A DNA stretch of 64,000 bases from Nannocystis bainbridge (GTDB lineage Bacteria; Myxococcota_A; Polyangia; Nannocystales; Nannocystaceae): positions 992,001-1,056,000 of the forward strand of contig NZ_JAQNDL010000002.1 of the NCBI RefSeq assembly GCF_028368995.1, in the 5' to 3' direction. The notes under the pieces were generated by a model. It searched no databases. It saw only the letters and a program-made list of their open reading frames with translations, and was not told where the DNA came from. Below are positions 35,979-38,171 of the stretch, one piece after another (positions within the stretch are counted from its first letter, which is position 1; every line of letters begins with the position of its first letter). The translations under genes were made by a program, and so were the position numbers.

Positions 35979-36698
35979 TCAGGCGAACAGCAGGCGCAGC
36001 GCTTCGTCGCGCGGGACGGCGGCGAACGCCGCCAGCTCGAGGAAGAAATCGCGGCCGAGGTCGGCGCGGCTCGAGGCCGACACCAGCGGACCTATCGCCC
36101 GCAGCACGGCGAAGCGGCGCTCGCGCGGGAGGGCCGCGAGGCGGGCGCCGACGTGATCGAGCTCGGGCCGCTTCGCCAGGTACTCGCGCGCCAGCACCTC
36201 GCGGCGCTCGGGCGTGAGCGGCTGGCGGTCCAGCAGCGCGCGGTACTGATCGATCTCCTCGGGGTCGAGCACGCCGTCGAGGTGGATCATCACCGCCGCG
36301 AAGGCGGCGATGTGTTCGCCGAGGTCGGCGGCCTGCTCGGTCCACTGCCGGCGCCAGCGCGCCAGCTCGTTGGGCGTGACGCCGAGCTGCGCGGCGATCC
36401 GCTCCATCATCGCGACCTCGGCCGCGCTCGCTTCCCCGTCGGCGAGGGCCATCGCCCACGCGCGCTCGAGCGTGGTCTCGGTGAAGGCCGGCAGCGGCGG
36501 CGGGAGGTCCTCGAAGACGACGTGGAGCGCGTCGAGGTCGCCGAGCATCTTGAACCACCGCCGACTCTCGGCCTCGTCGAGGTGCTCATCGAGCATCGTC
36601 AGGATCAGGTCGGCCTCACCAGGCTTGATCTCGCCGTCGGCGTGGGCGATGAGGCCGCAGGCGACGAGGATCCACTCCTGCTCGGGGGTCAGGTGCAT
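35979..36698 (-). CDS. Tandem TerB-family (tellurite resistance B-like) protein
   Basis: IAHADGEIKPGE, ALADGEASAAE...IAAQLG, and a second repeat MIHLDGVLDPEE. Confidence 0.8.
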   Translation of the reverse strand: MHLTPEQEWILVACGLIAHADGEIKPGEADLILTMLDEHLDEAESRRWFKMLGDLDALHVVFEDLPPPLPAFTETTLERAWAMALADGEASAAEVAMMERIAAQLGVTPNELARWRRQWTEQAADLGEHIAAFAAVMIHLDGVLDPEEIDQYRALLDRQPLTPERREVLAREYLAKRPELDHVGARLAALPRERRFAVLRAIGPLVSASSRADLGRDFFLELAAFAAVPRDEALRLLFA

Positions 36699-36800: not shown

Positions 36801-38171
36801 TCAGCCCGCGGCGCCGCAGTAGCGGAGGCACTCTTCGGGCGGGTCGGCCAGTTTGTACACGTAGTACTCGCCGCAGTTCCGCACCTGGATCTGGGTCTCC
36901 CAGTCGCACTGGGTGTCCCACGTGAAGCAGACCTGACGATCGACCACGCCGTCGTCGACGACCGGGTGGACGCCGACCATCCAGCCGGGAGCGTCGGTGC
37001 CGCAGGAGAATGGCGCGGGCGGGACGGTCGGCATCTGCGTGCCGGCCGGGCCGGTGAGGCGGTACCACTTGTTCTCGAGCAGCTTGTCACACTTGGTGAC
37101 CTTGCCCGGGCCGTCGTTGAAGGTCGCGATGCGATCGGGCTCGGCGAGCGTGACGTAGCCGAGGCACTCGGCGGGCAGCTCCTTCTGGCACTGCTCGTCG
37201 CAGCCGTCGAGCGGGACGAGGTTGCCGTCGTCGCACGTCTCGAGGTCCGGCTCGATCAGGCCGTCGCCGCAGCGCGGCCCGAGCGAGGCGCAGCCGGGGG
37301 CGCAGCCGTCGTAGCTGCCGTCGTTGACGCCGTCGTCGCAGGCCTCGTCGCTGTTGTGGACGAAGCCGTCGCCGCAGCTGGCCTGCGTGCAGTCGACCAG
37401 GCAGTCGTCGTTGTTGTCGAGGTTGCCGTCGTCGCAGGCCTCCTCGCCGGTCCACAGGTAGCCGTCGCCGCAGGTGGCCGTCATGCACTCGACGCAGCCG
37501 TCGTCGGTGCTGAGGTTGGCGTCGTCGCACTCCTCGAACACCGCGTGGGTGAAGCCGTCGCCGCACGAGTCGGGCTGGCAGGTCGAGAGGCAGTTGTCGT
37601 CGTCGAGGGTGTTGCCGTCGTCGCAGGCCTCGCCGTCGTCGACCTTGCCGTTGCCGCACAGCATCACCGGGGCGACCTCGCACGCGACCGTGCAGCCGTC
37701 GTCGTCCTGCTCGTTGCCGTCGTCGCAGGCCTCGGCGCCGAGCTGGACGAAGCCGTCGCCGCAGCGGGCCTCCTGACACAGCGCGGTGCAGGTGTCGGAG
37801 TTGTCGGTGTTGCCGTCGTCGCAGGCCTCGGCGCCGGCCTGGACGAAGCCGTCGCCGCACACCGCGAGCACGCAGTTGCTGAGGCAGGCGTCGGAGTTGT
37901 CGAGGTTGCCGTCGTCGCAGGCCTCGCCGGGATCGAGCTCACCGTTGCCGCACTGCAGCTCGGCGCCGGTGCTCGGGTCGGTGGTCGTGGTCGGCTCGCT
38001 GGCGCCGGTCGAGGTGCTGCCCGAGGTGTCACCCTCGGTGACGAGCGAGCCGCTGGCGTCGGTGACGGGGGTCTGGCCGGTGTCGTCGGTGCAGCCCTGC
38101 TGCAGCGCGAGCGCGCCCGCCAGCAGCACCGTCAAACCCGCCCGTTGCCCGCCGCGTCCCGTCCAAGCCAT
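36801..38171 (-). CDS. Lipoprotein with myxobacterial Cys-rich repeats (DUF4215-like) and a C-terminal uromodulin/GP2 D8C-like domain
   Basis: Lipobox-like LQQGC; about 8 CGDG...EACDDGN...C repeats; C-terminus CDKLLENKWYRLTG...CGTDAPGWMVGVHP...VDRQVC...IQVRNCGEYYVYKL...CLRYCG. Confidence 0.9.
   Translation of the reverse strand: MAWTGRGGQRAGLTVLLAGALALQQGCTDDTGQTPVTDASGSLVTEGDTSGSTSTGASEPTTTTDPSTGAELQCGNGELDPGEACDDGNLDNSDACLSNCVLAVCGDGFVQAGAEACDDGNTDNSDTCTALCQEARCGDGFVQLGAEACDDGNEQDDDGCTVACEVAPVMLCGNGKVDDGEACDDGNTLDDDNCLSTCQPDSCGDGFTHAVFEECDDANLSTDDGCVECMTATCGDGYLWTGEEACDDGNLDNNDDCLVDCTQASCGDGFVHNSDEACDDGVNDGSYDGCAPGCASLGPRCGDGLIEPDLETCDDGNLVPLDGCDEQCQKELPAECLGYVTLAEPDRIATFNDGPGKVTKCDKLLENKWYRLTGPAGTQMPTVPPAPFSCGTDAPGWMVGVHPVVDDGVVDRQVCFTWDTQCDWETQIQVRNCGEYYVYKLADPPEECLRYCGAAG

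Follow-up and report, generated by a model that had tools for sequence, protein, structure and literature searches.

How does a domain known from the anti-bacterial decoy proteins of vertebrates come to stand at the C-terminus of a myxobacterial protein, and what might it do there? The question is raised by a stretch of 64,000 nucleotides from Nannocystis bainbridge (contig NZ_JAQNDL010000002.1, positions 992,001 to 1,056,000; hereafter the window), in which nucleotides 36801..38171 of the reverse strand hold a single credible gene. From the list of open reading frames (ORFs) and its translation, the gene encodes a putative lipoprotein of 456 amino acids, with the stop codon at 36801..36803. 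The G+C content of the window is 68-78%, and the long ORFs that run in other frames over 36801..38171 are the usual by-product of high G+C. An earlier reading made without database searches (the sequence-only reading) had proposed that the C-terminal part of this protein, the sequence of which it quoted exactly as it stands in the ORF translation, follows the Cys-rich D8C/D10C domain of vertebrate uromodulin (UMOD), GP2 and OIT3, here displayed on a lipid-anchored stalk.

This first proposal is confirmed. The C-terminal 123 residues (334-456; 36804..37172, reverse strand) are a true homologue of the D8C/D10C domain of UMOD, GP2 and OIT3, far beyond what chance would give, as seen in Pfam, phmmer, profile and fold searches alike. 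The Pfam family D8C_UMOD (PF23283) scores 56 bits (E 4.7e-15) on the 123-residue piece and 51.6 bits on the whole protein, against a gathering cut-off of 27, the matched stretch being residues 377-452 (36816..37043, reverse strand) and profile positions 9-87 of 88. When the domain is compared with all PDB sequences by phmmer, four distinct sequences are matched at E-values from 2.3e-18 to 1.9e-17, all of them human GP2 (E 2.3e-18) or uromodulin (E 7.9e-18); the alignment to GP2 pairs positions 3-120 of the query with 35-150 of the chain, running from the first to the last Cys and hence over the whole of D10C. A profile built from 25 bacterial copies finds the same two proteins at E 2.7e-33 (GP2) and 4.5e-33 (UMOD), with positions 4-125 aligned to GP2 34-150 and UMOD 149-264. 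In other words, the relationship extends to the full C1-C10 boundaries, beyond the older D8C core.

The predicted structure points the same way. An AlphaFold2 model of residues 334-456, made from the alignment of the 25 bacterial copies and with no templates, has a predicted local distance difference test score (pLDDT) of 92.9 and a predicted template modelling score (pTM) of 0.87. Foldseek gives 12 PDB matches to this model at E<=1e-3, and each of the 11 listed is a chain of UMOD or GP2 (template modelling score 0.83-0.90, root-mean-square deviation 1.4-2.5 Å, 34-38% identity); the next match lies at E 1.1, such that no other fold appears at E<=1e-3. Two of the checks that the sequence-only reading had put forward, HMMER searches of Pfam and PDB and a comparison of an AlphaFold model with GP2, therefore both bring back the expected family. 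A fold search of viral structures with the same model returned no match at E<=1e-3, and there is therefore no sign of a viral vector.

As a general caution, Cys-rich repeats can yield spurious matches, and one may ask whether the likeness stems from chance or convergence, or from animal DNA contaminating the assembly. Such an artefact is improbable in the extreme. The E-values, from 1e-15 to 1e-33, hold over the whole domain, and the fold match is unique. Moreover, the G+C content at third codon positions (GC3) of the gene is 0.96, like that of its neighbours; five named Nannocystis genomes share the order APS kinase - D10C gene - TerB - Ddl, and their orthologues, of 74-84% protein identity, occupy the corresponding position; and a second copy of the domain exists in the genome. 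The D10C gene is an old, vertically inherited resident of Nannocystis.

The sequence-only reading had counted eight Cys residues in the domain, with two of the vertebrate set apparently absent, a count which stands and can be sharpened. The eight are residues 336, 361, 390, 415, 422, 433, 448 and 452, and in the phmmer alignment they correspond to C1, C2, C4, C5, C7, C8, C9 and C10 of GP2, with P384 at the position of GP2 C3, and with GP2 C6 falling in an insertion relative to the bacterial domain. The main text of the GP2 structure paper gives the disulfides of its D10C as C1-C8, C2-C9, C3-C6, C4-C10 and C5-C7 (PMC8930769). On that pairing the absent C3 and C6 are partners, and therefore exactly one disulfide is missing; those of the bacterial domain would be C336-C433, C361-C448, C390-C452 and C415-C422. 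Of the 74 alignment rows that are bacterial or bacterial-like, 73 lack both C3 and C6 and the remaining one has all ten Cys; the pair is also lacking in 7/31 animal rows and 34/64 unlabelled rows (C3 alone is absent in one unlabelled row). Since the eight-Cys form is also found in animals, it marks a subtype and does not exclude these domains from the D10C family.

The likeness to UMOD and GP2 is thus one of domain family, of boundaries (GP2 C1 to C10), of predicted fold at 34-38% identity, of motifs (WYRF, C-x-T-x-AP-x-W-x-G-x-HP and LRYC) and of four out of five disulfide positions. The differences lie in what surrounds and decorates the fold. In GP2 a separate β-hairpin, stapled by a disulfide (Cx-Cy), precedes D10C (PMC8930769); the bacterial alignments begin at C1, no such hairpin is present, and the residues before C336 are those of the eighth DUF4215 repeat. 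No N-x-S/T sequon occurs anywhere in the 123-residue domain: K440 (in K-L-A) aligns with the glycan site UMOD N275 and G338 with GP2 N65, and the UMOD N275 position is without a sequon in all 25 bacterial copies. A Pfam scan finds no EGF or ZP module in the 456-residue protein, which is bacterial, putatively lipid-anchored and forms no filament of the UMOD kind. The FimH-decoy mechanism of UMOD and GP2 therefore cannot be carried over to a domain with neither glycan sequon nor β-hairpin and, with the ZP polymerisation module absent as well, D10C would here not act as a glycan-presenting decoy.

In animals the family is large. An exhaustive HMMER search of 1.84 billion representative sequences gave 2979 clusters at E<=1e-3, of which 1536 reach E<=1e-10, the top-scoring matches being tandem D10C arrays of up to 17 copies. 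By exact look-up these arrays come from Montipora, Acropora, Pocillopora, Oculina, Actinostola and Nematostella, from amphioxus, and from cyprinid and characiform fish, where they are named omcin, GP2-like or uromodulin-like; a search from one amphioxus D10C region brought up two amphioxus proteins only. Animal D10C domains keep company with CUB, SRCR and VWD modules and, in ectodomains, with those of C-type lectin, Ig, EGF, ZP, kinase and adhesion-GPCR proteins. The D10C of the window is 45-50% identical to the cnidarian arrays, as against 34-38% to human UMOD and GP2, and the anthozoan and other invertebrate multi-D10C proteins are indeed its nearest relatives in sequence and its neighbours in the trees described below. 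Examples are Oculina patagonica KAL9961269.1, Montipora capricornis XP_068722945.1, the Nematostella 'notch homolog' XP_048579921.1 and the Branchiostoma 'UMOD/GP2/OIT3-like D8C domain-containing protein', of which the six-copy Nematostella and two-copy Branchiostoma proteins share the eight-Cys subtype; all differ from the window's protein in their arrays of up to 17 copies and their animal modules, whereas the latter has a single copy after DUF4215 repeats. The teleost omcins (zgc:153932 family; Naruoka et al. 2024, PMC11415648), relatives of which are among the HMMER matches of the bacterial domain, are likewise membrane-anchored extracellular proteins, with a variable number of D10C copies, for which a part in the handling of microbes is proposed (PMC11415648). 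They are described there as ZP proteins with a glycosylphosphatidylinositol anchor, and differ from the bacterial protein in this as in their ten-Cys type and their place on the far side of the tree.

In bacteria the range is much narrower. D8C_UMOD occurs twice in the genome of N. bainbridge, in 11/11 genomes of its genus, in 35/73 genomes of its order (7/17 genera, and 20/42 high-quality genomes) and in 13/401 genomes of an even sample of its phylum, spread over several families and with 12 scores above the Pfam cut-off. Families of the phylum other than its own often have it in open frames of 1000-1676 amino acids. None of 14 named control genomes has it. A scan over 185,579 prokaryote species, one genome per species, was made with one narrow peptide pattern, by which distant copies may be missed, and yielded 64 loci, 55 of which bear myxobacterial names. 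Within Nannocystis the names include N. punicea, the domain of which is 87% identical, together with N. exedens, N. pusilla and N. radixulma; beyond that genus they include Enhygromyxa, Paraliomyxa, Polyangium, Sandaracinaceae and Bradymonadia. The remaining nine loci are labelled 'delta-proteobacteria' (four, an old name), 'Enterobacteriaceae' (two), 'bacterium' (two, one of them the unplaced L081) and Planctomycetota (one). The two 'uncultured Enterobacteriaceae' loci, with 67% GC, coincide in coordinates with a genome assigned by the genome search to the window's phylum, and the locus labelled 'MAG: bacterium 6_bin.52', a metagenome-assembled genome (MAG), also maps to a genome of that phylum. 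In the phylum of the MAG labelled Planctomycetota, D8C_UMOD is present in 1/201 genomes, namely in that MAG itself.

The relation between the animal and bacterial copies was addressed with two IQ-TREE phylogenies, one of 58 rows (30 bacterial, being every second row, and 28 animal) and one of 85 rows (57 bacterial and 28 animal), the bootstrap of the latter not being fully settled. Both omit 64 unlabelled rows, 16 rows that are bacterial by composition only, and four rows of unusual length or make-up (P0028_d4, P0082_d2, P0094_d2 and the unplaced locus L081); mammalian UMOD and GP2 are not among the rows, and the human comparisons rest on the PDB searches. The bacterial copies form one side of a branch in each tree, with ultrafast bootstrap (UFboot) and Shimodaira-Hasegawa-like approximate likelihood ratio (SH-aLRT) values of 85/86 for 58 rows (81% of bootstrap trees) and of 89/90 for 85 rows (90% of bootstrap trees). 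Together with a domain from the coral Oculina and the Ig-linked, animal-type P0097 they are grouped at 100/94 and 99/93, respectively; Montipora, Acropora millepora and Actinostola come next outward (89/82 and 91/86), with the amphioxus and teleost copies on the opposite side of both trees. The phylogeny and taxonomic survey that the sequence-only reading had suggested thus return one bacterial group adjoining anthozoan copies, with a range centred on Myxococcota.

As far as these sequences can tell, one transfer between animal and bacterium is enough to explain the trees. Passage from animal to bacterium is favoured because the bacterial copies are nested beside anthozoan paralogues and have a narrow, patchy range set against a broad one in animals, and we regard this direction as rather probable. 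On such a reading the family would have entered Myxococcota once, most likely from a cnidarian-like animal, after which it would have spread patchily in the phylum and been shuffled onto DUF4215, SRCR, TSP3 and Dicty repeats, the P-domain and MopE motifs. Some caution over the direction is needed here, since the trees are unrooted and their animal rows, being the top matches to a bacterial query, are biased towards bacteria-like animals. On the opposing side stands also a quick tree of 169 rows, with the unlabelled rows included, which places a 32-row animal clade inside a weakly supported bacterial region; its resolution (17/166 branches well supported) is too poor for use. The sequence-only reading had left it between horizontal transfer and a bacterial origin of the fold; its animal-bacterium link is real, the bacterial group standing beside the anthozoans.

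The converse history would have D10C arise in Myxococcota as the head of surface lipoproteins, pass to an early animal and only later become a glycan-presenting decoy, such that the scaffold of UMOD and GP2 would be of bacterial origin. It fits the trees in so far as both groups are single clans in them and one transfer either way suffices. Furthermore, the bacterial copies are 42-55% identical among themselves, compared with 45-50% to the cnidarian copies, they occur in several Myxococcota families, and papers, in the portions consulted, propose myxobacteria as donors of other eukaryotic genes. We nonetheless think it doubtful. The bacterial range is almost wholly one phylum, in which it is patchy, and the outlier MAG is alone among 201 genomes of its own, whereas animals from corals to fish and humans carry D10C in thousands of clusters. 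Moreover, a root on the bacterial branch needs several anthozoan-only paralogue lineages that are older than the cnidarian-chordate split and that were later lost in chordates.

Whatever its source, the domain sits in a protein of distinctive plan. Residues 1-27 (38091..38171, reverse strand) read as a signal peptide that ends in a lipobox (...LALQQG-C27), the form of which, L-A-L-Q-Q-G-C, departs from the textbook L-[AS]-[GA]-C; homologues read LLQGC, LSAC or LAAC around the same Cys, and this Cys27 is conserved to at least 90% in an alignment of 16 homologues. The following residues 28-72 (37956..38090, reverse strand) are, from their sequence and a pLDDT <50, a low-complexity linker rich in Thr, Ser, Asp and Gly, weakly conserved in the same alignment. 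Residues 73-333 (37173..37955, reverse strand) form eight acidic, Cys-rich repeats, the presumed stalk, which both Pfam and NCBIfam recognise in eight stretches: as DUF4215 (PF13948) at E 1.1e-35 and 122 bits against a cut-off of 27, and as TIGR02232 'myxo_disulf_rpt' at E 4.5e-49 and 164 bits against a cut-off of 20.8. DUF4215 and D8C_UMOD are the only Pfam families in the protein, and the function of DUF4215 is given as unknown (bioRxiv 10.1101/2023.03.06.531300). By its eight clear repeats the protein belongs with those named for DUF4215 or the TIGR02232 'Myxococcus cysteine-rich repeat', and it differs from what these names convey in its C-terminal D10C, which they ignore; NCBI names one homologue 'DUF4215 domain-containing protein', and others are 'cysteine-rich repeat protein' at JGI.

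From this plan we infer a mechanism in which the lipoprotein signal would tie the N-terminus to the membrane, the flexible Thr/Ser-rich linker and the eight repeats would serve as a spacer, and D10C at the C-terminus would be a distal head for ligand binding or recognition, perhaps engaged when the cell meets prey, matrix or other cells. That the protein is as a whole a lipid-anchored, stalked surface protein with a D10C binding head, of a family transferred between animals and bacteria, is something in which we have moderate confidence. Here the sequence-only reading of a lipoprotein-anchored, stalked domain holds as to the order of modules, with D10C C-terminal to eight DUF4215/TIGR02232 repeats, and as to the conserved lipobox Cys; its stalk geometry finds no such backing, the full-length model being poor.

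The nearest functional analogy among myxobacteria is TraA of Myxococcus xanthus (Pathak et al. 2012, PMC3325183), although on grounds of architecture only. The plan proposed here, of a recognition head on a Cys-rich stalk with a surface anchor, is that of TraA, and the two proteins are non-homologous: in TraA, as described, the head is PA14, the repeats are TIGR04201 and the anchor is MYXO-CTERM at the C-terminus, whereas in the window's protein these are, respectively, D10C, TIGR02232 and a lipobox at the N-terminus, and hence the polarity is reversed. NCBIfam and Pfam scans at E<=1 find no PA14, TIGR04201 or MYXO-CTERM in the 456-residue protein. A role of D10C as a C-terminal secretion or sorting tag was also considered and, by reasoning from architecture, set aside: the domain is a disulfide-locked globular fold of 120 residues, and an N-terminal anchor is already present.

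Selection on the gene was estimated by the Nei-Gojobori method against four Nannocystis orthologues, with a codon bias strong enough to make the absolute values rough. The ratio of nonsynonymous to synonymous substitution rates (dN/dS) is 0.50-0.66 in the D10C domain (dS 0.18-0.32), 0.68-0.81 in the DUF4215 region (dS 0.09-0.17) and 0.56-1.25 in the linker (dS 0.24-0.36), as against 0.10-0.22 in the flanking TerB and Ddl genes (dS 0.16-0.29). The overall emerging picture is of a D10C gene that is maintained and constrained, with all Cys and core motifs kept, and that yet evolves several-fold faster than its housekeeping neighbours, as is frequent for interaction surfaces and surface proteins.

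Several considerations weigh against a surface-exposed binding head. The lipoproteins of Gram-negative bacteria face the periplasm by default, and we know of no ligand for any D10C domain. The residues that are invariant across the 25 bacterial copies are largely the fold core common to UMOD and GP2, and mark no binding site. The full-length AlphaFold2 model, with a mean pLDDT of 47.7 and values <50 in the DUF4215 region, offers nothing for the geometry of a stalk. Nor is there a sign of transcription in the eight public runs sampled, in which at most 12% of the sampled words are present; one RNA run, of four aligned, covers parts of the repeat region only, with mismatches, and may stem from other DUF4215 genes, while another run, probably of DNA, spans the D10C region with ~88% identity. 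The runs thus speak neither for nor against transcription or habitat. In UMOD and GP2, finally, the domain is a glycan scaffold and no binder, as the text of the structure paper presents it (PMC8930769).

Much of this would also suit a more modest role, with D10C as a passive, disulfide-locked end-cap or spacer of a periplasm-facing lipoprotein, without specific ligand. Conservation of the fold core, default topology and the UMOD/GP2 domain being known, in that text, only as a scaffold all lean this way, as does the lack of any partner gene nearby, the neighbours Ddl, TerB-like protein and APS kinase giving no functional clue. An inert cap is nevertheless unlikely. D10C has been recruited repeatedly as the terminal module of differing extracellular-type proteins and is retained in every genome of the genus, and a dN/dS 3-5 times that of the flanking genes, with all Cys kept, suits an interaction surface better.

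This recruitment is evident from the partners of D10C in bacteria, among which DUF4215 is by far the commonest, the others being SRCR with MopE-type motifs, TSP_3, Dicty_CTDC, P_proprotein, Kelch, LRR, DUF7151/collagen and extra copies of D10C itself (up to three in tandem). In 17/22 related loci D10C ends at most two residues from the stop codon. Four carriers from other Myxococcota, including a MAG labelled Bradymonadia (L018 64-3246 (-), L040 1087-5889 (+), P0087 and P0089), exceed 1000 amino acids and place D10C beside two or three SRCR domains, a second animal-style extracellular module, and MopE-type Cys motifs. Elsewhere D10C stands with TSP type-3 repeats in a Sandaracinaceae MAG (L059 2002-3276 (+)), with Dictyostelium-type CTDC repeats (L021 1-1743 (+)) and with a proprotein-convertase P-domain (L016 1495-3249 (-)). 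Local tandem duplication has left two adjacent DUF4215/MopE and D10C genes in Polyangium fumosum, Polyangium sp. y55x31 and a Myxococcota MAG (L071 2215-3357 and 3323-4537; L045 1-2184 and 2188-3369; L085 2080-3360 and 3364-5190). Three tandem D10C copies, some with six Cys only, lie in a single protein at L011, and the largest carrier seen is P0102, an Asp/Ala/Gly-rich protein of 7241 amino acids with D10C at its end (residues 7122-7240).

The second D10C lipoprotein of N. bainbridge, a paralogue of 338 amino acids (G000:C1:125602-125847 (-); L001 1489..2505 (-)), follows the same plan, with an LVSGC lipobox, a long, repetitive linker rich in Thr, Pro and Ile (TIDPTTIDPTT...), a few DUF4215 repeats and a D10C domain, and its orthologues in other Nannocystis genomes form a separate, well-supported clade. 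Downstream of the window's own gene, at a gap of ~100 nucleotides, lies a 239-residue TerB-domain protein (35979-36698, reverse strand), and the two genes remain neighbours in Nannocystaceae MAGs as distant as 51-62% identity (loci L029-L034). In the DUF4215 region (37173-37955, reverse strand) the dS between Nannocystis species, 0.09-0.17, falls below that of D10C and the flanking genes (0.16-0.32), for which gene conversion among the repeats or an extra constraint at the nucleotide level could account. In Nannocystis pusilla Na p29 (L026) the tblastn matches to D10C and to APS kinase each fall into two overlapping parts in different frames (~2881-2896 and 1085-1097), a pattern that suggests indels introduced by long-read assembly and not true pseudogenes. 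A promoter and terminator scan, limited to sigma-70-type sites, found nothing.

As to whether bacterial D10C is already widespread and characterised, a circumstance that the sequence-only reading had set against its own proposal, the answer is divided. In Myxococcota the domain is reasonably common, and automatic annotation with Pfam D8C_UMOD already flags the bacterial proteins (13/13 matches in one homologue table carry PF13948 and PF23283, and NCBI names another bacterial D10C protein 'hypothetical protein'); on the other hand, full-text literature searches, with most subscription journals outside their scope, found no paper on a bacterial D8C or D10C. The fold was reported as new in 2022, from decoy proteins that vertebrates direct against bacteria, and the structure paper presents the original D8C as a domain conserved among proteins of vertebrates; it also places on D10C the FimH-binding glycan of uromodulin and GP2, as well as many of the UMOD mutations of kidney disease (PMC8930769).

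D10C is thus medically important. In a glycan-free bacterial D10C on a simple lipoprotein, perhaps amenable to expression in bacteria, one has a compact system in which to test the stability of the fold, the logic of its disulfides and its possible ligands. Proteins hitherto labelled 'DUF4215 domain-containing' or 'hypothetical' can now be described more precisely. For the Myxococcota, D10C adds a clear and datable case to the animal-type extracellular modules, such as EGF, SRCR and TSP3, that they hold, and its coral-like nearest relatives bear on gene flow between animals and predatory bacteria. Even if the transfer ran from animal to bacterium, the D10C of bacteria would be the first of its kind to act without a glycan, and as such could reveal an intrinsic ligand binding of the fold that is not yet known in animals.

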